Assembly: GCA_046538795.1 (NCBI GenBank)
Contig: JBKHIF010000007.1
Location: 1-33,572, forward strand
Length of the DNA stretch: 33,572 nucleotides
From: Candidatus Woesearchaeota archaeon
Lineage (GTDB): Archaea; Nanobdellota; Nanobdellia; Woesearchaeales; CAZJJJ01
Direction: 5' to 3'
Part shown: positions 18,111-33,572 of the stretch, in pieces
Layout: the number at the start of each line of letters is the position of its first letter
Position numbering within the stretch: position 1 is the stretch's first letter
The notes under the pieces: model-generated
What the model was told of the DNA's origin: nothing
Database searches by the model: none
The model's input: the letters and a program-made list of their open reading frames with translations, nothing else
Program-made: the position numbers and the translations under genes

Positions 18111-19340
18111 ATGAGATTTGCTCACCTTGCAGATGTACATATAGGAGGTTACAGAGAGGAGAAACTTAAGGATATAGCTACAAAGGCTTTTCAAAATGCA
18201 CTCAATATTTCTCTTAAAGAAAAGGTTGATTTCATACTTATATCAGGAGATCTTTTCAACACCTCAATTCCTGCTATAGATAATCTAAAGATTGTCACAA
18301 ATAAGTTCAGGCAGCTTAAAGATAATAATATCCCTGTATATTTAATCGCAGGAAGCCATGATTTTTCTCCTTCAGGAAAGACAATGCTTGATGTACTTGA
18401 AAATGCAGGGCTTTGCAAGAATGTCGTAAAAGGAGATGTTATAGATGGAAAGCTAAGGCTTAAGTTTACGATAGATCCCAAGACAGGTGCAAAAATTACA
18501 GGATTGCTTGGAAAAAGAGGGATGCTTGAAAGGACTTTCTATGAATCTCTTGACACGTCAAATCTGGAGAATGAGCAGGGATTTAAGATATTCATGTTCC
18601 ATACAGCCCTTACTGAATTAAAGAGAAAAGGCATGGAGAACATGGATTCTGCTCCGCTTTCTCTTCTGCCAAAAAGGTTCAATTATTATGCAGGAGGGCA
18701 TGTTCATTATCCTCTTGCAAGGTATGAAGAATCTTTAGGAGGTTTTATCACGTATCCGGGAGCATTGTTTCCAAATAGTTTTAAGGAACTTGAAGATCTT
18801 GGAGCTGGAGGCTTTTTCATATATGATACTGAAAAAAAGAATCCTGATTTTCACAAGATACTTATTTATCAGACTTATAAGATAAAAATAGACTGCACCC
18901 ACAAGACTCCTGAAGAGATTAATTCTGTAATTATGGATGAGATTAAGAACAAGGAATTCTATGATACCATAGTTCTTATCAGGCTTTTTGGAAAACTTAG
19001 GTTAGGCAAGGTTTCGGATATTGATTTCAAGATGATAACAAATGAGCTTTATGACAGGGGGGCTTATTTTGTGATGAAAAATACAGCATCTGTCTCATCT
19101 GAAGAATTTGAAGAGATAAGGCTTCAGTCAGAATCTGTAGGTGAGATAGAGGATAAGCTTATTGATGAGCATACCGGCCAGATGAAGTTTGATAGTATCG
19201 CGTGGGATAAAGAGACTGAAAAGAGAATGATCCTGGCGCTTTTTGAATCTCTTGATCAGGAAAAGATAGAAGGAGAACGAGTTTCTGATTTTGAAGAAAG
19301 GCTTGTTTCTGATCTAGGAAAGATAATTGACCTTAGCTGA
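18111..19340 (+). CDS. mre11: Mre11/SbcD DNA repair nuclease
   Basis: HLADVHIG, ISGDLF, IAGSHD, MFHTA, YYAGGHVH and YPGA phosphoesterase motifs. Confidence 0.93.
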   Translation: MRFAHLADVHIGGYREEKLKDIATKAFQNALNISLKEKVDFILISGDLFNTSIPAIDNLKIVTNKFRQLKDNNIPVYLIAGSHDFSPSGKTMLDVLENAGLCKNVVKGDVIDGKLRLKFTIDPKTGAKITGLLGKRGMLERTFYESLDTSNLENEQGFKIFMFHTALTELKRKGMENMDSAPLSLLPKRFNYYAGGHVHYPLARYEESLGGFITYPGALFPNSFKELEDLGAGGFFIYDTEKKNPDFHKILIYQTYKIKIDCTHKTPEEINSVIMDEIKNKEFYDTIVLIRLFGKLRLGKVSDIDFKMITNELYDRGAYFVMKNTASVSSEEFEEIRLQSESVGEIEDKLIDEHTGQMKFDSIAWDKETEKRMILALFESLDQEKIEGERVSDFEERLVSDLGKIIDLS

Positions 19341-20517
19341 AGTATGATTTCAGGTTGTTTATTGTCTTTTCAGGATCTTCTGATATTCCCTGAGCAAATT
19401 GTTCTCTTCCGCCGCCTTTCATCCCAGTGTCTTTTATTATCTTTCCTGCATCTTCTATCTCTTTTGAAGTCTTCATTGAGAACTGTGTACCTTTATCTGT
19501 CTTGTTGAATATGAGCATGAGCTGTTTTTCTTTTTTTTCATCAAAATTTTCATTTAGCTTGTCTGTAATCTGTTTTTTGTCAAAATTTTCTACAAAAGAA
19601 TATCTGATTGTCACATCATTTGCTTTTTCCTCTTTTATATTAAGTTGCTTTCCTGACTGTAGATCCCTGATCTTAGCTTTCATCTCATTGTTTTTTTTCA
19701 TGAGATTTGCTGTGAATTCTTTGAGTTCTGACGGGTTTATCTTAAGTTCTGATGCAGTTTCTCGTGTGTATCTTGAAAGCTCGAAAAGATCTTTGGCAGA
19801 GTTTACTTTGAACTTTACTTCATACTTGTCCTGGACTTTGCTAAACTTTATTACAATAAGATTTCCTATAAAAGAAGTTTTTGCACAGTGCACTCCTGCA
19901 CATGCAGAATAATCATGATCCTCGATCTCGATTACTCTTATGGTGTCTGACTGGATTCTGTCAAGTTTTATTCTTGCTTTTGGAAATCTTCTTTTTACGT
20001 CGTCTCTGTTTACCATATGTATAGAAACTTTCCTGTCCTGTTGAATTATTTTGTTTGCTATCTTTTCTGCTTTAAATATATCTTCCCATGTAATCTCTCT
20101 TTGTTTGGGGGGTATTATGAAAAGTGATGATTCATCTTCCTCTAGATGAATTTTTTCAACTTGAAGTTCAGGGATTATTTTTAGCAGTGATCCCATGAAC
20201 AGATGTTCTCCGGTATGCATCCTTGTAAGTTGTTCTCTTCGTTTTTTGTCAATCTTTAGTTCAACAGCCATGCCTGGGATAAGTTCTATATTATATGGGA
20301 CTTCAATCTTGTGAAGTACAGAAGTTTTGTTCTTGTAAGCATCTTTAACTTCATATTCTATGCCGTTTATAATTATGGTTCCGTGATCTCTTGGCTGACC
20401 CCCGCCTCCGGGGTAGAATATAGTATCTGTAAATTCAAGTATTGCAAAATCTCTTTCTCGTTCTATAGATATTACCCTTTCCAATGATTCAAAAATAAAT
20501 GGGTCCTGGTATTTCAT
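19333..20517 (-). CDS. alaX: AlaX-type trans-editing protein with C-terminal DHHA1/C-Ala domain
   Basis: TIFYPGGGGQPRDHG; HTGEH and CAGVH zinc ligands; KGGGREQFAQG C-terminus. Confidence 0.9.
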   Translation of the reverse strand: MKYQDPFIFESLERVISIERERDFAILEFTDTIFYPGGGGQPRDHGTIIINGIEYEVKDAYKNKTSVLHKIEVPYNIELIPGMAVELKIDKKRREQLTRMHTGEHLFMGSLLKIIPELQVEKIHLEEDESSLFIIPPKQREITWEDIFKAEKIANKIIQQDRKVSIHMVNRDDVKRRFPKARIKLDRIQSDTIRVIEIEDHDYSACAGVHCAKTSFIGNLIVIKFSKVQDKYEVKFKVNSAKDLFELSRYTRETASELKINPSELKEFTANLMKKNNEMKAKIRDLQSGKQLNIKEEKANDVTIRYSFVENFDKKQITDKLNENFDEKKEKQLMLIFNKTDKGTQFSMKTSKEIEDAGKIIKDTGMKGGGREQFAQGISEDPEKTINNLKSYFS

Positions 20518-20541: not shown

Positions 20542-21068
20542 TTAAAAAGATAATTTTTTATAGCCCCATTTTTTAAGGTTAGATTCAATATTTTCATATT
20601 TGTTTCCGCAGATCATTCCTCCTGCAATAAATTCTTCCTGAGAGACATCTGCAAGACAAAAATCAGGCATCTTAAAATTATCTTTTTCTTCTTCTGTCTC
20701 AAACTCGAAATCTACCCAGACAAGACCTTTAAGGTCATCAAGAAACACATCAATTTCAGCAAGTTTTCCTTATGTTCATAGTAATGTCTTATCCTTCGTG
20801 ATATTTTTCCTGGTGTTTTTGCAAGTTCTTCATACTCTTCTTTAGACAAAGGAATAGTCTGTTCAAGCTGTTTTGTAGAATCATTGCCTTCTACAGGGCA
20901 TTTTTTTGTAATTTCCATTATGTCTCCTGATTTTCTGATTCTTAATATTGGATGTCTTTCACTTTTTGGTATGTATATATCTATGATTTCCTTTTTTTTG
21001 CAGTTTTCTAATCCTTTAGGAATATATTTTGCAAGAAATGTTCTTTCAAGTTCTATCATATCAATCAC
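20542..21068 (-). pseudogene. CYTH-domain protein split by a -1 frameshift near 20763-20770 (pseudogene, recoding or sequence error)
   Basis: Frame A: MIELERTF..LRIRK..EITKK..RIRHYYEHK. The -1 frame continues GKLAEIDVFLDDLKGLVWVDFEFETEEE..PDF, giving a complete CYTH domain of about 175 aa. Confidence 0.85.
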
Positions 21069-22447
21069 TTTATTAGTTTCTTAAGAAGCGGTATTACAGT
21101 ATTTGGTGATGCCTTTCCTCTTGATTTTCTCATGACCTGACCCATAAGGAAATTAAGGGCATTTTCTTTTCCATTCTTGTAATCAGTTATTGCATTAGGG
21201 TTTTCATCGATTGCCTCTTTGCAGAATTTTTCGATCTCTCCTGAATCTGAAACTGTTTCAAGATTGTTTTTCTTAACATATTCTTTTACATCAAATGTTT
21301 TTTGAGATAGTTTTTCAATGATCTTTTGAGCAACCTTTTCTGTAATCTTATTGTCTTTAATCAGATTCATCAAGTTAATCATGTTTTCGTTAGTTATCGG
21401 AAGTTCATCAATATCTTTTTTCTGAAAATTTGCGACACGAAGAAGTTCTCTTCTTAGCCAGCGTACAGCAATTTTTGGATCAATTTTATTTTTTATTGCC
21501 TCTTCAAAAATCTCTGCAAGATATATATTTGAACTTATCACATAAGCATCTTCTTTTTTCAGGTTGTGCTTTTTTTCATAGCGTTCTTTTTTTATACTAG
21601 GAAGTTCAGGAAGTATTTTTGTGATATCTTTGATTGTATTATTTTCAATACTTATTACAGGAAGGTCAGGTTCTGGTATGAACATGTAATCTGCTGCGTT
21701 TTCTTTTGATCTCATGAACAAGGTTTTTCCAGTTTTTTCATCCCAGGTTCTTGTTTCCTGTTTTACGTCTTCTCCCTTATCAACGACCTCTTTTTGGCGT
21801 TCTACTTCATATTCTGCTGCAGAAACAATTGATGAAAATGAGTTTACATTCTTTATTTCAACACGCTTGTATTTGGGTTCTATTGAAACATTAACATCGC
21901 TTTTTATTCCTGAATCTTTGTCGATTGCTTTGATGTATGAAAGTGTTGTAACAAGATTTTTCAGCCATTCTCTTAACTCATCAACACTTCTGAAATCTGG
22001 TTCTGTAACAATTTCTACTAATGGATAACCAGACCTATTGTAATCAACACAGCCTGTAACAGGGTCCCATTTTGCAGGATCTTCTTCTAAGTGTACATCA
22101 CTTATTCCAATATCAAGAAAATTTCCGTTAATTCCTACAGGATGTGAATATGCACCTGATATTGTCTTTTGATATCCTGAAGGAAGATCAGGCCATGAGT
22201 AATGTTTTCTCTGAAAGATCAGTCTTTGATTTACCTTACAGCCGAGCATAAGTGAAATTGCGATTATTTTTTTTAGAGCTTCATTGTTTGGAAGCATTGG
22301 TTTTGATCCTGGTTGTGATGTACATACAGGGCAGATGTTTGTATTTGCTTCAGATGTTTGGTCTGTCTTACAGTTGCAAAAAAGTTTTCTTTTAGAATCA
22401 GTATTTATGTAACCATGAATCTCTAATCCAATTTTTATCTTTGTCAT
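21065..22447 (-). CDS. gatB: Asp/Glu-tRNA amidotransferase subunit B
   Basis: IGLEIH, KLFCNC, CPVC..PGSKP, HLEEDP, DYNRSGYPLVEIVTEPD, EIKNVNS, PEPDLP and NFLMGQVM; 460 aa, without the GatE insertion. Confidence 0.96.
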   Translation of the reverse strand: MTKIKIGLEIHGYINTDSKRKLFCNCKTDQTSEANTNICPVCTSQPGSKPMLPNNEALKKIIAISLMLGCKVNQRLIFQRKHYSWPDLPSGYQKTISGAYSHPVGINGNFLDIGISDVHLEEDPAKWDPVTGCVDYNRSGYPLVEIVTEPDFRSVDELREWLKNLVTTLSYIKAIDKDSGIKSDVNVSIEPKYKRVEIKNVNSFSSIVSAAEYEVERQKEVVDKGEDVKQETRTWDEKTGKTLFMRSKENAADYMFIPEPDLPVISIENNTIKDITKILPELPSIKKERYEKKHNLKKEDAYVISSNIYLAEIFEEAIKNKIDPKIAVRWLRRELLRVANFQKKDIDELPITNENMINLMNLIKDNKITEKVAQKIIEKLSQKTFDVKEYVKKNNLETVSDSGEIEKFCKEAIDENPNAITDYKNGKENALNFLMGQVMRKSRGKASPNTVIPLLKKLIK

Positions 22448-22513: not shown

Positions 22514-22786
22514 TCATTTACGAAGGTTTTTCCAGAAATCTTTTTGAAGCATATAATTATATGAAATTGCATAGATGACTCCTTCTTTATCTGAACTAAT
22601 ACCTGAATCTATGATCCTTCCTCGATCCACAAATCCGATTCCGTCTTTCCAGCGTTCTCCAAAATCGTCCTGAAGTTTTTTTTCAAGTACAGAGAGAGCG
22701 CTTTTTTCATCTTCTGCAGAAACAACAGCAGGTCCCATATCCCAATGTGTCTGATACATTGTGAAGATGTAAATGTGATAATCCAT
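22514..22786 (-). CDS. small hypothetical protein
   Basis: 90-aa ORF with a TATA-like element upstream; divergent from nrdB. Confidence 0.65.
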   Translation of the reverse strand: MDYHIYIFTMYQTHWDMGPAVVSAEDEKSALSVLEKKLQDDFGERWKDGIGFVDRGRIIDSGISSDKEGVIYAISYNYMLQKDFWKNLRK

Positions 22787-22868
22787 AGAAAATTCAGAAG
22801 GTAAATGATGTTTTTATAATTATCTTCAATAATTTCATACCAAAGCGATAATTCCTAAACCAGTTACA

Positions 22869-22884
22869 ACACAACATGTTGTTG
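22869..22884. promoter_or_regulatory. NrdR-box-like palindrome 1
   Basis: ACACAACATGTTGTTG resembles the consensus acaCwAtATaTwGtgt and lies inside the longer near-palindrome TTACAACACAACATGTTGTTGTTGTAA. Confidence 0.75.
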
Positions 22885-22900
22885 TTGTAATTTGAATAAC

Positions 22901-22916
22901 ACACAATATATTGTGC
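22901..22916. promoter_or_regulatory. NrdR-box-like palindrome 2
   Basis: ACACAATATATTGTGC is a near-perfect NrdR box; it starts 32 bp after box 1 and lies upstream of the RNR operon. Confidence 0.88.
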
Positions 22917-22942
22917 TTTTGTTTAAAATTAAACAAAACTCT

Positions 22943-22948
22943 TTTAAA
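22943..22948 (+). promoter_or_regulatory. putative TATA box of the nrdB-nrdA operon
   Basis: TTTAAA begins 29 nt before the ATG, the same spacing as at five other genes in the window. Confidence 0.65.
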
Positions 22949-22971
22949 AGAAAAATACATTTTGAAAAACT

Positions 22972-24246
22972 ATGAAAATCACACAAGTAAAGAAAAGAGA
23001 TAATACGATCAAGACTTTTGACAAAGACAAAATTAGTTCTGCTGTGCAAAAAGCGATGGATGCAAGCAAAGAAGGAAGTTTTGAAGATTCCAACAAAATA
23101 ATGGAACAGGTTGTAGAAATTCTTGAAGGGATCAAGCAAAAGGATTCTAAATATATACCTTCTATAGAAGGCATCCAGAATATTGTTGAAGAAGTTCTCA
23201 TGAGAAGCAATTTTCACAAAACTGCAAAATCATATATCCTTTACAGGAATCAAAGAGCAAAAAAACGAGAATCAAACATCTTTGAACCACGGCTTAACCT
23301 TAAGCCTTATGAATATCCTGGATTATTAGAATATGTTGATGCCATAAGACATTCTTACTGGATACACACTGAATTTAAATTTGATGGTGATATACAGGAT
23401 TTTAAGGTTAGGCTTTCTGAAACAGAACGTGATGCAATCAGAAAGACAATGCTTGCCATATCGCAAATTGAGGTTGCTGTAAAAACTTTTTGGGGCAACC
23501 TTTATAGTAAGCTTCCTAAACCAGAAATCGGTTCAGTTGGAGCTACTTTTTCAGAAAGTGAAGTCAGGCATCATGATGCATATTCACATCTTCTAGAAAT
23601 ATTAGGCTTGAACAAGGAATTTGAAAATCTGAAAAATGAGCCTGTCATAATGCAGCGTGTCAATTATCTTGATTCTGTTGTAAAGTACGCAAAGACAGAA
23701 GATAAGAAAGAATATTCTCAATCAATATTGTTGTTCTCACTTTTTGTAGAACATGTATCTTTGTTCTCTCAGTTTCTTATCATAATGTCTTTTAACAAGT
23801 ACAAGAACCAGTTTAAGGGAATCTCTAATGTTGTAGAAGCGACATCAAAAGAAGAACAGATACATGGAGATTTTGGAATTGAAATTATAAATATCATAAA
23901 ACAAGAAAATCCTGAGTGGTTTGATGAAACTCATAACAGGCTTGTGCAAAACATGTGCAGACAGGCTTTTGAATCTGAAAGCAAGATCGTTGACTGGATC
24001 TTTGAAAAAGGAGAATTGGATTTTCTTCCTAAATCTGTGATAAGAGAATTCATCAAAAACAGGTTCAATAATTCTTTGGAAAGTATAGGAATCCCAAAAA
24101 TATTTGATATTAATAACGATCTGCTTGAACTGACTGAATGGTTTGATGATGAGGTTATTGCGACAAAACATGTAGATTTTTTTGCGAAAAGATCAATAAA
24201 CTATACCAAGAAGAGCAAGAGTGTCACAAGTGATGACTTATTCTAG
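22972..24246 (+). CDS. nrdB: ribonucleotide reductase class I beta subunit with N-terminal ATP-cone (NrdBi / class Id-like)
   Basis: ATP-cone VKKRD..FDKDKI..IQNIVE..L..AKSYILYR, then the ferritin-like domain: QIEVAVK, ESEVRHHDAY, VEHVSLFSQF, KEEQIH and C-terminal DFF..RSINY. Confidence 0.96.
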   Translation: MKITQVKKRDNTIKTFDKDKISSAVQKAMDASKEGSFEDSNKIMEQVVEILEGIKQKDSKYIPSIEGIQNIVEEVLMRSNFHKTAKSYILYRNQRAKKRESNIFEPRLNLKPYEYPGLLEYVDAIRHSYWIHTEFKFDGDIQDFKVRLSETERDAIRKTMLAISQIEVAVKTFWGNLYSKLPKPEIGSVGATFSESEVRHHDAYSHLLEILGLNKEFENLKNEPVIMQRVNYLDSVVKYAKTEDKKEYSQSILLFSLFVEHVSLFSQFLIIMSFNKYKNQFKGISNVVEATSKEEQIHGDFGIEIINIIKQENPEWFDETHNRLVQNMCRQAFESESKIVDWIFEKGELDFLPKSVIREFIKNRFNNSLESIGIPKIFDINNDLLELTEWFDDEVIATKHVDFFAKRSINYTKKSKSVTSDDLF

Positions 24247-24261
24247 ATAAGAGGGATAAAA

Positions 24262-25932
24262 ATGGAATGGTTAACAGAAAATAGCAGAAAGTTTCTTGAG
24301 AGAGGATATTTGCTTGAAGGTGAAACAGCAGAAGAAAGGATCAAAGAGATTGCTGATAATGCTGAAAATATACTCAAGATAAAAGGGTTTTCAGAAAAAT
24401 TTCATTATTATATGTCAAAAGGATATTTTTCTTTGGCATCACCTGTCTGGGCAAATTTTGGCAGAAAACGAGGTCTTCCTGTAAGTTGTTTTGGTTCTTG
24501 TATTGAAGATAATATGGGTAGTATTTTATTTAATCATTCTGAGGCTGGGATGATGTCAAAACTTGGCGGAGGAACATCAGGTTATTTTGGAAAGGTTCGT
24601 CCAAGAGGCACTCCTATAAAAAATAATGGCCAGTCCTCAGGTTCAGTTCATTTCATGAGATTGTTTGAAACTTTGGTTGATGTTGTAAGCCAGGGTTCTA
24701 CAAGAAGAGGGCATTTTTCACCATACTTGCCTATTGATCATGGTGATGCAGAAGAATTTTTAGAAATAGGTTCTGAAGGCAACCCAATACAGAAATTGAC
24801 TCATGGTGTGTGCGTTAGCGATGACTGGATGAAAGATATGATTGATGGTGATGAAGATAAAAGAAAACTCTGGGCAAAAGTTCTTCAGATGAGATTGGAA
24901 AAGGGTTATCCATATATATTTTTTACAGATAATGCAAACAACAATACTGTTGATGTGTACAAGGATAAGAACATGAAGATACATGCAAGCAACATGTGCA
25001 CAGAGATAATGCTTCCAAGTGATGAAGATAATTCTTTTACTTGTGTATTATCATCTGTTAATGTATTGCATTTTGAAGAAATAAAAGAAACAGATGCTGT
25101 TGAAACTTTGGTTTATTTTCTTGATGCTGTCGTAACAGAATTCTTGCAGAAACTTGAAGAATATCGTGATTCAGAAAACAAAGAAGACCAAAGGACTTTC
25201 CAGTTCATGGAAAAGGCATACAATTTTGCTAAACATCATCGTGCTTTGGGTCTGGGAGTTTTGGGATGGCATTCTTTACTTCAGTCAAAGACGATAATTT
25301 TTGAATCACAGGATGCATCAGATATTAATCTTGAAATATTTAAGTTTATCAAAGAAAGATCATACAAGGCATCAAAAGAGCTTGCAGAACTATTTGGAGA
25401 ACCAAAACTATTGAGGGATTATGGAAGACGAAATACAACACTTAATTCCATTGCTCCGACAACATCGTCTGCGTTTATCTTAGGTCAGGTTTCACAAGGT
25501 ATTGAACCTGTCTGGTCAAACTGTTATGTAAAGGATATTCAAAAAATAAAGACAACGATAAAAAATCCTTTCCTGGTTGATCTGTTGGAAAAAAAGGGAA
25601 AAAATAATCCTGATGTCTGGAAAACAATACGGGAGCATGATGGTTCTGTACAGGGATTAGATTTTTTATCTGAGCATGAAAAAGAGGTTTTTAAGACATA
25701 TCCTGAGATAGATCAATCAGCAATAATTTCTCAGGCAGCAGCAAGACAACAGTTTATTGATCAGGGACAGTCGATAAATATAATGTTTCATCCAGAAACT
25801 TCTGTTAAAGAGATCAATAGTCTATACATAAAGGCATGGAAATTTGGATTAAAATCACTTTATTATCAACATAGTACAAATGCTGCACAGAAATTTAATC
25901 AGAAAAAGATATGCAAGTCATGCGAGGCTTAG
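24262..25932 (+). CDS. nrdA: ribonucleotide reductase class I alpha subunit, without ATP-cone
   Basis: ASPVWANFG, PVSCF, GGGTS, SNMCTEI (NxCxE), TCVLSS, APTTSS, DQGQSIN, SLYY and C-terminal CKSCEA. Confidence 0.97.
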   Translation: MEWLTENSRKFLERGYLLEGETAEERIKEIADNAENILKIKGFSEKFHYYMSKGYFSLASPVWANFGRKRGLPVSCFGSCIEDNMGSILFNHSEAGMMSKLGGGTSGYFGKVRPRGTPIKNNGQSSGSVHFMRLFETLVDVVSQGSTRRGHFSPYLPIDHGDAEEFLEIGSEGNPIQKLTHGVCVSDDWMKDMIDGDEDKRKLWAKVLQMRLEKGYPYIFFTDNANNNTVDVYKDKNMKIHASNMCTEIMLPSDEDNSFTCVLSSVNVLHFEEIKETDAVETLVYFLDAVVTEFLQKLEEYRDSENKEDQRTFQFMEKAYNFAKHHRALGLGVLGWHSLLQSKTIIFESQDASDINLEIFKFIKERSYKASKELAELFGEPKLLRDYGRRNTTLNSIAPTTSSAFILGQVSQGIEPVWSNCYVKDIQKIKTTIKNPFLVDLLEKKGKNNPDVWKTIREHDGSVQGLDFLSEHEKEVFKTYPEIDQSAIISQAAARQQFIDQGQSINIMFHPETSVKEINSLYIKAWKFGLKSLYYQHSTNAAQKFNQKKICKSCEA

Positions 25933-30431: not shown

Positions 30432-31739
30432 TTATGGAGTATATCTAAACATTGTCCTTGGAAATGCTATTGCATCTTTTATATTATCAAGACCGCAGAT
30501 CCATTTTATCAATCTTTCTACTCCGAGACCGAATCCGCCGTGAGGAACAGAACCATATCTTCTTGTATCAAGATAGAACTCATAATTTTTCAGCTCTTCA
30601 CCTTGTTCTTTAAGACGATCTTTTATCTTTTCGATATCATGTTCCCTTTGGCTTCCGCCTATAATCTCGCCATGACCTTCAGGTGCAAGGAAATCACATC
30701 CAAAAACCACATCTGGATTTTCTGGATCTTCCATCATGTAAAATGCTTTTACTTTCTTTGGATAATGTGTAACGATCAATGGCACATCATAAAGTTCTGT
30801 AAGTTTTTCTTCTTCAAGTGTCCTTAGATCTTTGCCCCATTCAACTTCCATGTCTGCTTTTTCTTTTAGTATTCTTAAAGCTTCATCATAGGTCATCCTA
30901 AGGAATGGTTTTTCTATAACTGGTTTTAGTTTTTCAACATCACGTTTGAGTGTCTTCAGCTCATCAGGATTGTTTTCAAGAACCTTTTTTACAGCATGTT
31001 TTATTAATCCTTCACCATGATCTTGTATGACCTTGAAATCAGCCCATGCAACTTCCATTTCTGCATGCCAATATTCTGTTAAATGTCTTGAAGTCTTTGA
31101 TTTTTCTGCTCTAAAAGAAGGTGCAATACAGTATATCTTTTCGAGAGCATATATCATCGCTTCTGCGTGAAGCTGCCATGTCTGTGCAAGATAAAGAGGT
31201 TTTCCAAAATAATTGACTTCAAAAAGTGTTGAACCTCCTTCTGCCTGACTGCTCATGAATATTGGTGATTGATGCTCGTAAAAATTATTATTTCTGAAAT
31301 ATTCATGAATTGCACCAAATACAGTGCTTCTTACTTTCATGATTGCACTCATCTTTCTGCTTCGAAGCCATAGGTGTCTTACATCAAGAAGAAATTCTTC
31401 TGAGAAATCTTTTCCTATAGGGAATTCATTGCTTTCTCCGACAATCTCAAAATCAGTAACATGTATTTCAAAACCGACAGGTGAACGAGAATCTTCTTTT
31501 ACTTCTCCTTCAATTCTTAATGAATACTCAACCTGAAGCTTGTCAGCCTTATCGAATTTATCATCGCCAAGAATAGATCGTTCCATCAGGCATTGTATTA
31601 TTGCAGTCGAATCCCTAAGCTGTATGAATTTTCTTTCATTGCTTCCTCTTTCACGATGGATCCAGCCATGTATTGTTACTTTGCCTGAACCTTTATTGAT
31701 AGCTTCTCTTATTGATATATCTTCATTCATCGGTTTCAT
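30432..31739 (-). CDS. asnS: asparagine--tRNA ligase
   Basis: OB fold GWIHR..FIQLRD, RHLWLR, EGGSTLF, FRAEKSKTSRHLTEYW, GEIIGGSQRE and YGSVPHGGFGLGVER. Confidence 0.93.
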   Translation of the reverse strand: MKPMNEDISIREAINKGSGKVTIHGWIHRERGSNERKFIQLRDSTAIIQCLMERSILGDDKFDKADKLQVEYSLRIEGEVKEDSRSPVGFEIHVTDFEIVGESNEFPIGKDFSEEFLLDVRHLWLRSRKMSAIMKVRSTVFGAIHEYFRNNNFYEHQSPIFMSSQAEGGSTLFEVNYFGKPLYLAQTWQLHAEAMIYALEKIYCIAPSFRAEKSKTSRHLTEYWHAEMEVAWADFKVIQDHGEGLIKHAVKKVLENNPDELKTLKRDVEKLKPVIEKPFLRMTYDEALRILKEKADMEVEWGKDLRTLEEEKLTELYDVPLIVTHYPKKVKAFYMMEDPENPDVVFGCDFLAPEGHGEIIGGSQREHDIEKIKDRLKEQGEELKNYEFYLDTRRYGSVPHGGFGLGVERLIKWICGLDNIKDAIAFPRTMFRYTP

Positions 31740-32479: not shown

Positions 32480-33572
32480 TCACTTTTTCTTTTTTGGAAG
32501 TTCAAATTTGATATGAACTTCCTTTGAGACCTTTTCGTCCAATAAAGATGGTGATCCATCCATAGGACACTGCGCAGCCTTGTTTTTAGGAAATGCTATT
32601 ACTTCTCTGATGTCGTTAGTTCCAACAAGAATAGCAGTAAGCCTGTCAAGTCCTATCCCTACACCGCCATGTGGAGGAGCTCCATACTTGAATGCTTCAA
32701 GAAGAAATCCAAATTTTTTGTAAGCATCCTTTTTTGAAAGACCTATAACTTTCATGACTTTTTCCTGTATGTCTTCTCTGTGTATCCTGATCGAGCCTGA
32801 ACAAAGCTCTGTTCCGTTAAGTACAAGGTCGTAAAGCGAAGCCTTTACTTTTGATGGATCTTTTTCTAAAAATTCCATGTGTTCTTTTTTTGGCATGGTA
32901 AACATATGGTGAGCTGGTTCCCATCTTTCATCTTCATCATTCCATCCGAAAAGAGGGAAGTCAACTACCCAGCAGAACCTGAATGCAGACTGGTCTATGA
33001 GGTCAAGTCTTTTTCCGAGTTCATTTCTTAATCCTGCAAGAACTGTATTTGTTACTTTAGGTTTATCTGCAATGAATAAAAGAACACCTTTTTTTGCTTT
33101 TGTTTTCTTAAGAATTTCTTTTTGTATTTCAGAGCTTAGGTATTTTGTGATGCTTGACTCAAGACCGTCTTTTGTTATGCGTGCCCAGGCCATCCCTTTA
33201 GCACCCAATGATTTTGAAAACTCGATAAGATCATCAAGCTCTTTTCTTGAGAAATCTGATTCAGGATTTATGCATTTTACTATTCCACCTTTTTTTATTA
33301 CATCTTTGAACACTGAGAAATCCGATTTACCTGCAATCTCGCTGATATCTGTTAATTCAAGGCCAAACCTTAAGTCAGGCTTATCAGTACCAAAGCGATC
33401 CATAGATTCATCAAATGAGAGTATTTCAAATGGAGTTTGAATATTAAGATTTTTAACTTTTTTCAGTACATGCTTCATCAATCCTTCAACAACTTCCTGC
33501 ACATCTCTTTCTTCGACAAAACTCATCTCAAGATCAATTTGTGTGTGTTCAGGCTGCCTGTCTGCTCTTAAG
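32480..33572 (-). CDS. aspS: bacterial-type aspartate--tRNA ligase (5' end outside window)
   Basis: The frame is open to the window edge: LRADRQPEHTQIDLEMSF, FGTDKPDLRF, GAD insertion, WVVDFPLF, HHMFTMP, YDLVLNG, GSIRIH, YGAPPHGG and VIAFPK. Confidence 0.96.
   Translation of the reverse strand, partial: LRADRQPEHTQIDLEMSFVEERDVQEVVEGLMKHVLKKVKNLNIQTPFEILSFDESMDRFGTDKPDLRFGLELTDISEIAGKSDFSVFKDVIKKGGIVKCINPESDFSRKELDDLIEFSKSLGAKGMAWARITKDGLESSITKYLSSEIQKEILKKTKAKKGVLLFIADKPKVTNTVLAGLRNELGKRLDLIDQSAFRFCWVVDFPLFGWNDEDERWEPAHHMFTMPKKEHMEFLEKDPSKVKASLYDLVLNGTELCSGSIRIHREDIQEKVMKVIGLSKKDAYKKFGFLLEAFKYGAPPHGGVGIGLDRLTAILVGTNDIREVIAFPKNKAAQCPMDGSPSLLDEKVSKEVHIKFELPKKKK

Follow-up and report, generated by a model that had tools for sequence, protein, structure and literature searches.

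A pair of NrdR boxes lies directly upstream of the class I RNR operon nrdBA in the window, by which we mean the whole 33,572-nucleotide stretch of Candidatus Woesearchaeota DNA that was analyzed, and there is very little doubt that the pair is an NrdR operator. One NrdR faces, on the basis of promoter predictions, two opposite operator layouts in this genome, with the boxes upstream of the TATA box at nrdBA and over the start site at nrdD. Across the order, the upstream layout is predicted to be specific to class I operons and helically phased.

The two boxes, which start 32 bp apart and are separated by a 16-bp linker, were found by inspection of the window sequence where the original prediction had placed them, at 22869 and 22901 upstream of nrdB-nrdA (Table 1). 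An NrdR box needs C4, A6, A8, T9, T11, and G13 plus sufficient A+T, and the canonical linker of box pairs is 15 to 16 bp (PMC13584703); the linker observed here falls within this range (31 to 32 bp start to start). The A+T content between C4 and G13 is 75% and 100% in the two boxes (at least 63% is expected of NrdR boxes), and 12 of 16 positions in box 1 and 14 of 16 in box 2 are self-complementary. A matrix derived from 101 boxes in relatives, with the window's own genome left out, gave the pair 38.8 bits and ranked it first in the 1.34-Mb genome. The pair at nrdD scored 38.6 bits and the next-best pair 17.8 bits, while the best pair per genome in 20 resampled genomes reached 13.6 to 23.1 bits. 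The pair is not a chance occurrence. A scan of the same genome with a consensus, allowing up to two mismatches, returned six boxes, four of which formed the two pairs in the window and on contig C8. No third NrdR box was found in the window, where the candidate partner scored negatively.

Table 1. Features of the nrdBA promoter region and operon in the window
Feature	Position	Strand	Details
Divergent 90-aa ORF	22514-22786	-	before gatB; predicted leaderless promoter
Predicted TATA box of divergent ORF	22811..22818	-	6.6 bits; 50 bp from box 1
NrdR box 1	22869..22884		ACACAACATGTTGTTG; C4, A6, A8, T9, T11, and G13 all present; 19.0 bits
Interbox linker	22885..22900		16 bp; 32 bp start to start, ~3 helical turns
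NrdR box 2	22901..22916		ACACAATATATTGTGC; six of six conserved positions; 19.8 bits
AT-rich spacer	22917..22938		perfect 10-2-10 inverted repeat; contains TTTAAA at 22922; right arm contains predicted BRE
Predicted BRE (CAAAA)	22934..22938	+	genome-trained promoter matrix; 6.7 bits, strong
Predicted TATA box	22941..22949	+	register 22941 or 22942; 31 to 30 bp before ATG, the genome's modal distance
nrdB	22972..24246	+	class Id (NrdBi) radical subunit; N-terminal ATP-cone at 22984-23259; E167, K171, W174 signature
nrdA	24262..25932	+	catalytic subunit without ATP-cone; TIGR02510, 760.8 bits, above cutoff

No nrdR was found in a gene search of the window, as originally stated, and the genome carries a single copy, on contig C14 (TIGR00244, 197 bits against a cutoff of 124.65). 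Its product keeps C3/C6/C32/C35, D15, R17, R27 to R30, K54, E60, K66, and Y132 and is, judged by these residues, intact. D15 and R17 are the base-reading residues of NrdR (PMC9110341), and we infer that the ATP-cone residues correspond to the Streptomyces coelicolor numbering. No box pair was found in front of this nrdR. Bin contamination was ruled out by the genes for aIF-2 gamma, S6e, and archaellin-like proteins on its contig and by its archaeal nearest named homologues. The window is likewise archaeal, with TFS, Nmd3, and archaeal signal peptidase genes, and Woesearchaeota/Nanoarchaeia is indicated by the homologues of NrdB, NrdR, and TFB that carry a name. One TFB gene and one TBP gene were found in the genome. 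The proposal of a bacterial-type regulator acting on a TBP/TFB promoter thus stands insofar as nrdR, TFB, and TBP are all present. However, NrdR is, to judge from its distribution, native to the order rather than foreign, because nrdR was found in 47 of the 61 genomes searched. Nine of 12 genomes without detected nrdR lack a box pair at the RNR promoter examined; the exceptions are strong pairs in G003 (82% complete) and G058 (95%) and a marginal one in G032. NrdR has been reported from 22% of archaeal genomes (PMC13584703) and from "some archaea" (PMC9110341), and it has been described as rare in archaea (PMC12176259).

Strong pairs occur in the window's genome only at its two RNR operons, nrdBA and nrdD-nrdG, which therefore constitute its predicted NrdR regulon. 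In alignments of orthologous promoters of relatives, the boxes are kept while the linkers and flanks have diverged. A search for nrdR, a genome scan for further paired boxes, and a comparison with orthologous operons had been suggested as checks on the original prediction; all three came out in its favor, with one intact nrdR, a second strong pair before nrdD-nrdG, and conserved boxes. Judged on sequence, it is very likely that the genome's own NrdR uses these boxes as a functional operator.

The nrdBA operon is assigned by sequence to the class Id (Mn-type) RNRs of bacterial type. The best PDB match of NrdB is 5OLK, the NrdBi protein of Leeuwenhoekiella blandensis (E value, 2e-191), and the two subunits show the Glu ligand, the Lys three residues before the conserved Trp, and the cone-less NrdA that characterize this subtype (PMC6754362, PMC5794259; signature defined in the former). 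The L. blandensis NrdAi/NrdBi system (PDB 5OLK and 6SF4) shares the ATP-cone in NrdB, the cone-less NrdA, and the Glu/Lys/Trp residues. In contrast to that system, class Id occurs here in an archaeon and under NrdR boxes. Any class I NrdB was detected in 40 of 401 genomes of the order, a tally that includes the unpublished genome G338, which enters no other claim. The class Id subtype was found in 9 of 401 and apparently stems from two acquisitions, one in the f1/f47 clade and one in f81.

In a quick NrdB tree (midpoint root, no clade test), 25 sequences including the window's NrdB form a clade (SH-aLRT, 100), and those of them that carry a name are archaeal. This clade is joined (97) by Veronia and by a protein labeled "bacterium DOLZORAL124," and the flavobacterial sequences lie apart. 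Flavobacterial proteins were nearest for 75 of 80 metagenome loci, and a box pair was missing from all 73 of these flavobacteria-like loci whose upstream DNA was long enough. All four loci nearest the DOLZORAL124 protein (two distinct sequences) carry a pair, as does Veronia itself; the single metagenome locus nearest the Veronia group and a Saccharibacteria locus do not. By sequence comparison nrdBA is likely of bacterial origin. A Bacteroidota donor is unsupported, as this quick, midpoint-rooted tree places the archaeal NrdBs nearer the Veronia/DOLZORAL124 group. The boxes may have arrived together with the operon, because the archaeal NrdBs sit nearer a group whose sampled members often carry them. 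Of the earlier proposal that an acquired RNR was wired into the NrdR regulon, the bacterial type of the RNR is upheld, but not that a Bacteroidota operon was wired in de novo. In haloarchaea, a bacterial class I RNR was likewise gained by an archaeon together with nrdR, which lies beside the class I RNR genes (nrdR-nrdB-nrdA or nrdR-nrdA-nrdB; PMC3019208). There nrdR travels with the operon, whereas here it is unlinked and order-wide; NrdR boxes are not described in the accessible text of that source.

For core promoter prediction, 766 upstream regions, all from the window's genome, served to train a BRE-TATA matrix. The matrix signal peaks at -30/-31 from the ATG, and TATA-like hexamers are sharply enriched genome-wide 28 to 31 bp before start codons. 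Because of the position of this peak, leaderless mRNAs appear to be common in this genome. Between 22790 and 22965, the best TATA score was obtained at 22941 (12.9 bits, at -31) and the second best at 22942 (8.4 bits); nothing on the plus strand upstream of 22940 in the window exceeded -0.9 bits. The original prediction had placed the TATA box at 22943, which scores -1.9 bits and gives way to one of these two registers. A second TTTAAA noted at 22922 is present in the sequence but was ruled out as a TATA box (-4.5 bits as BRE-TATA). The location of the boxes upstream of the main TATA was supported by these predictions, with 17 bp between the end of box 2 and the predicted BRE and 24 bp between it and the predicted TATA. 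The predicted promoter implies a leaderless nrdBA mRNA starting at approximately 22971 to 22972. On these predictions, the overlap of boxes with polymerase or the start site that is usual, although not universal, for NrdR operators is absent at this promoter and present at nrdD, where a TATA of 14.8 bits starts 19 bp ahead of box 1, which puts the predicted start under the boxes. In the nrdD operon (contig C8, L064:2279-5374), nrdG comes after an nrdD that is split into 706 aa and a C-terminal remainder of 66 aa.

The spacer between box 2 and the TATA is about one helical turn longer than in family members, and its inverted repeat was not evident by eye in the relatives' aligned promoters. Comparison of the stretch from box 2 to the BRE in 14 promoters, and of the stretch that follows the TATA in 19, revealed no 4-mer or 5-mer shared more often than in shuffled sequences, although this is a weak test. 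On the other side of the operator, the divergent ORF had no match in Pfam, NCBIfam, or PHROGs. The operator is unlikely to serve this ORF or gatB, as the ORF's TATA is 50 bp away and the upstream neighbors of relatives differ. Elsewhere on the minus strand of the window, a 394-aa protein (19333-20517) matches only positions 506 to 894 of the archaeal alanine-tRNA ligase model, which suggests a split AlaRS. Genes for a bacterial-type AspRS with a GAD domain (32480-33526), AsnRS (30432-31739), and GatB (21065-22447) are found together on this archaeal contig.

We surveyed 107 RNR promoter regions of relatives. Among class I promoters (n = 42), a TATA was found only after the boxes in 14, on both sides in 5, and only before the boxes in 19, and 4 had no pair. 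Class II promoters (n = 19) had a TATA before the boxes (10) or no pair (9), and class III promoters (n = 46) had a TATA before the boxes (33), a pair with no TATA in range (5), or no pair (8). A TATA downstream of the boxes was thus present in 19/38 class I versus 0/43 class II/III promoters (Fisher P = 2e-8), or in 10/21 versus 0/36 by family (P = 8e-6); these P values overstate the significance, as kin are nonindependent and the 12-bit and 5-bit thresholds were chosen after the promoters had been viewed. Room for a downstream TATA exists in 20 of the 43 class II/III operons. When 12 proteins called class II were compared with NCBIfam, NrdJ models were the best match for 10, and 2 gave no match at 1e-60. 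Few further class I operons came from searches at the class and phylum levels (16/401 and 28/401, respectively), and a contig scan gave two loci. Class I operons short of upstream DNA (G003, G497, G107, and G728), G401 and G585 (no pair), G338, and nrdR promoters without an assigned RNR were kept outside the tally, as was G744, a class I operon with its TATA before the boxes. A further exception outside the tally is G034, a class II-like case with nrdR followed by a 1,513-aa RNR-like ORF and no detected NrdB; it has a TATA at -33 and, at an off-phase gap of 9 bp, a second site of 7.3 bits.

The gaps between box 2 and a downstream TATA (n = 19) were 12 (twice), 13, 14, 15, 23 (twice), 24 (eight times), 25 (twice), and 26 (twice) bp. 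All 19 fall within 12 to 15 or 23 to 26 bp, two sets one helical turn apart (family-collapsed Monte Carlo P = 2e-5). Orthologous promoters of the window's family have gaps of 12, 13, or 15 bp, compared with 24 bp in the window. In two of the relatives, G002 and G006, the TATA scores 11 to 12.5 bits at -30, and the same holds for G004 when counted from its first ATG. Seven genomes (G000, which is that of the window, and G002, G095, G205, G209, G247, and G268) combine an upstream-type class I operon with a start-site-type class III operon. In G046, which carries two box pairs, the distal pair lies 53 bp ahead of the TATA. BREs are not weaker in upstream-layout promoters (3.8 versus 4.3 bits, P = 0.85), and TATAs are slightly lower (6.3 versus 6.9 bits, P = 0.005, with kin not independent). 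On a tree of 30 long NrdAs, the two layouts interleave, with six changes, three of them forced; a single origin of the upstream layout among the long-NrdA class I operons was rejected (one clade, p-AU = 5e-5). In G209, nrdR itself is the first gene of an upstream-type operon, and in G052 (99% complete) and G232 (97%), the class I operon is the sole RNR found.

Several loci in the survey were unusual in other respects. Offsets in the TATA-before promoters cluster near 17, 25, and 35 bp, which indicates that the start-site layout is phased too. G052 and G232 (L085 and L080) belong to one genus and carry different class I subtypes, both with a 24-bp gap and a predicted leaderless transcript. In G353 and G382 (L114 and L120), the operator in front of nrdR-nrdA has a strong TATA on each side, one 26 bp ahead of box 1 and one 24 bp past box 2, and the nrdD promoters have no boxes; the flanked operator is a candidate promoter switch. 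In G331, G086, G242, and G294 (L078, L079, L111, and L121), NrdR is apparently fused to NrdD (frames of 835 to 854 aa) and divergent from the class I operon, with one box pair in between. Four class III sides in family f81 use boxes common to the divergent class I operon, and in the two of these four cases that were inspected (G242 and G294), the class III TATA is ~105 bp beyond the boxes. About 2 kb past its class I operon, G114 has a second, short RNR-barrel-like gene (400-aa frame) in the opposite orientation (C2:176982-177965).

The operator and its regulator resemble those of bacteria (S. coelicolor nrdRJ/nrdAB, PDB 7P37, 7P3F, and 7P3Q; Escherichia coli, PDB 9FVR and 9FXK; PMC9110341, PMC13584703) in the two 16-bp partial palindromes, the linker length, and the six conserved box positions, as well as in the Zn ribbon, D15, R17, the RRRR stretch, the ATP-cone, and the restriction of strong pairs to RNR operons. 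They differ in the TBP/TFB promoter and in the position of the operator, all of which lies ahead of the predicted core promoter and in a set helical phase with it. A similar asymmetry is known from Streptococcus pneumoniae, where the boxes lie wholly upstream of the -35 element at class Ib nrdHEF and overlap it at nrdDG (PMC12051234). However, that system has a sigma promoter, 25- to 26-bp linkers, and weak binding, and lineage-wide phasing to the promoter is not described in the available part of the source. In Thermococcales, TrmBL1 (TGM motif) and TFB-RF1 also have sites downstream of the TATA or upstream of the BRE depending on the gene set, with a conserved distance between site and BRE (PMC4706686, PMC5937170), comparable to the 12 to 15 or 23 to 26 bp to the TATA found here. 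These regulators belong to unrelated protein families, and their activation was shown in vitro. TrmBL1 repressed 9 of 9 downstream templates and activated 2 of 3 upstream templates (PMC4706686). Upstream sites in archaea are usually activating, and TFB-RF1 targets have weak BREs (PMC5937170), in contrast to the promoter group of the window.

We lean slightly toward the view that NrdR damps nrdBA from a fixed upstream phase, which would give looser, phase-dependent repression. NrdR loaded with dATP would wrap the operator DNA just upstream of the predicted BRE-TATA. TBP bends DNA toward the major groove, and with gaps of 12 to 15 or 23 to 26 bp its bend would come within ~80 degrees of being additive (idealized arithmetic at 10.5 bp per turn, with 1 to 2 bp of register doubt). 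Such arithmetic cannot give the sign of regulation. The dATP/ATP-NrdR tetramer of S. coelicolor kinks each box by ~90 degrees, compresses the minor groove, and turns the DNA by 180 degrees (PMC9110341). By analogy with bacterial NrdR, a dATP/ATP-loaded tetramer would bind both boxes here and turn the DNA by ~180 degrees, roughly in phase with the TBP bend at this promoter. The wrapped DNA or the tetramer would then hinder assembly of the preinitiation complex rather than cover the start site. Compared with nrdD, whose predicted start is covered by its boxes, nrdBA would be repressed less tightly, and this leakiness would keep some of the oxygen-dependent RNR available. Simple occlusion of TFB, one of the mechanisms raised originally, fits poorly, as box 2 ends 17 bp before the predicted BRE.

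Repression agrees with the role of NrdR at RNR operons in the bacteria tested (PMC9110341, PMC12051234), and it is favored because class I and class III operons of S. pneumoniae differ in the same way (PMC12051234) and because upstream-layout BREs are not weak, unlike those of TFB-RF1 targets (PMC5937170). Since the class I layouts interleave on the NrdA tree, and 19 of 38 are of the start-site type, the same sign is suggested for both. Negative feedback would also be expected in G052 and G232, because no other RNR was found there, and the operator appears to be functionally tied to the promoter, because all 19 gaps are phased. Against repression stand the usual association of upstream sites with activation in archaea, the 17 bp that separate box 2 from the predicted BRE, and the slightly weaker TATAs of upstream-layout promoters. 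Furthermore, repression alone leaves the confinement of this layout to class I unexplained. That confinement, together with the seven genomes with opposite layouts, the strict phasing, and the five promoters with a TATA on both sides of the operator, which resemble promoter switches, would suit a position-dependent dual regulator, comparable to TrmBL1, that activates class I from upstream and represses class III from the start site, a possibility that we hold only tentatively. NrdR at a fixed phase upstream of the BRE would recruit or stabilize TFB/TBP; a working class I enzyme would keep dATP high, so that class I stays on, within the limit set by its own ATP-cone, and class III, which is oxygen-sensitive, stays off, and falling dATP would release class III. 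The Woesearchaeota-like NrdR would then, equally tentatively, be a two-way switch in which the dATP level selects aerobic or anaerobic DNA-precursor synthesis and NrdR at the start site represses the reductases that are anaerobic or depend on B12. Consistent with this are the position rule known from archaea (PMC4706686, PMC5937170), the lack of core-promoter overlap, the slightly weaker TATAs, and the reported activation of topA by NrdR in Pseudomonas aeruginosa (PMC4409342). However, the topA case has been questioned (PMC12051234) and was not seen by RNA-seq (10.1101/2025.03.28.645925). Activation is also at odds with the repressive, interleaved layout of half of the class I operons, with strong core promoters whose BREs are not weak, with the upstream layout in the two sole-RNR genomes, and with the nrdR that heads an upstream-type operon in G209.

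The need of class I enzymes for oxygen species and metals (PMC6754362) would account for the class restriction if NrdR worked through a second factor, either blocking an oxygen- or metal-responsive activator beside the BRE or leaving the start site free for one. The perfect inverted repeat at 22917 to 22938 could be the site of such a factor, but its right arm is the BRE, it is not evident by eye in relatives, and the short-motif comparison gave nothing above shuffles, so that we consider this reading unlikely. We give still less credence to a misplaced promoter with the true start at or upstream of the boxes, that is, an ordinary operator-over-start layout. The promoters are matrix predictions trained on one genome, and in five relatives a plausible TATA also precedes box 1. 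However, the plus strand upstream of 22940 offers at most -0.9 bits against 12.9 bits at 22941, which is at the modal -31; the TATAs of G002, G006, and G004 are well placed at -30, and chance TATAs would not be phased. That the boxes are relics that came with the operon, or sites of an unrelated factor, with no effect on transcription, is very improbable. Some bacterial homologues do carry boxes at the equivalent operon, but the boxes here were kept while linkers and flanks diverged, the distance to the TATA is constrained, NrdR is present and apparently intact, and the pair ties with the nrdD pair as the genome's best.

NrdR operators and counts of archaeal nrdR were known already; the predicted class-I-specific, phased upstream geometry is new. 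Our literature search found no study of archaeal NrdR operators and no report of NrdR activating an RNR gene or being linked to TBP/TFB; subscription papers, RegPrecise, and supplements lay outside it, among them the supplement of PMC9110341 with box logos across GTDB, which may include archaeal boxes. The genome of the window offers a matched pair for one regulator, with two operators of equal strength, one over the predicted nrdD start and the other at a fixed helical distance ahead of the predicted nrdBA TATA. If the upstream operator represses, it would be a case of archaeal repression at a distance by DNA wrapping, against the rule that upstream means activation. If it activates, the view of NrdR as a universal repressor of RNR genes would be overturned. 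Whichever sign holds, the class-I-specific layout suggests that these archaea, which are small and presumably anaerobic, control their oxygen-dependent reductase in another way than their other reductases.
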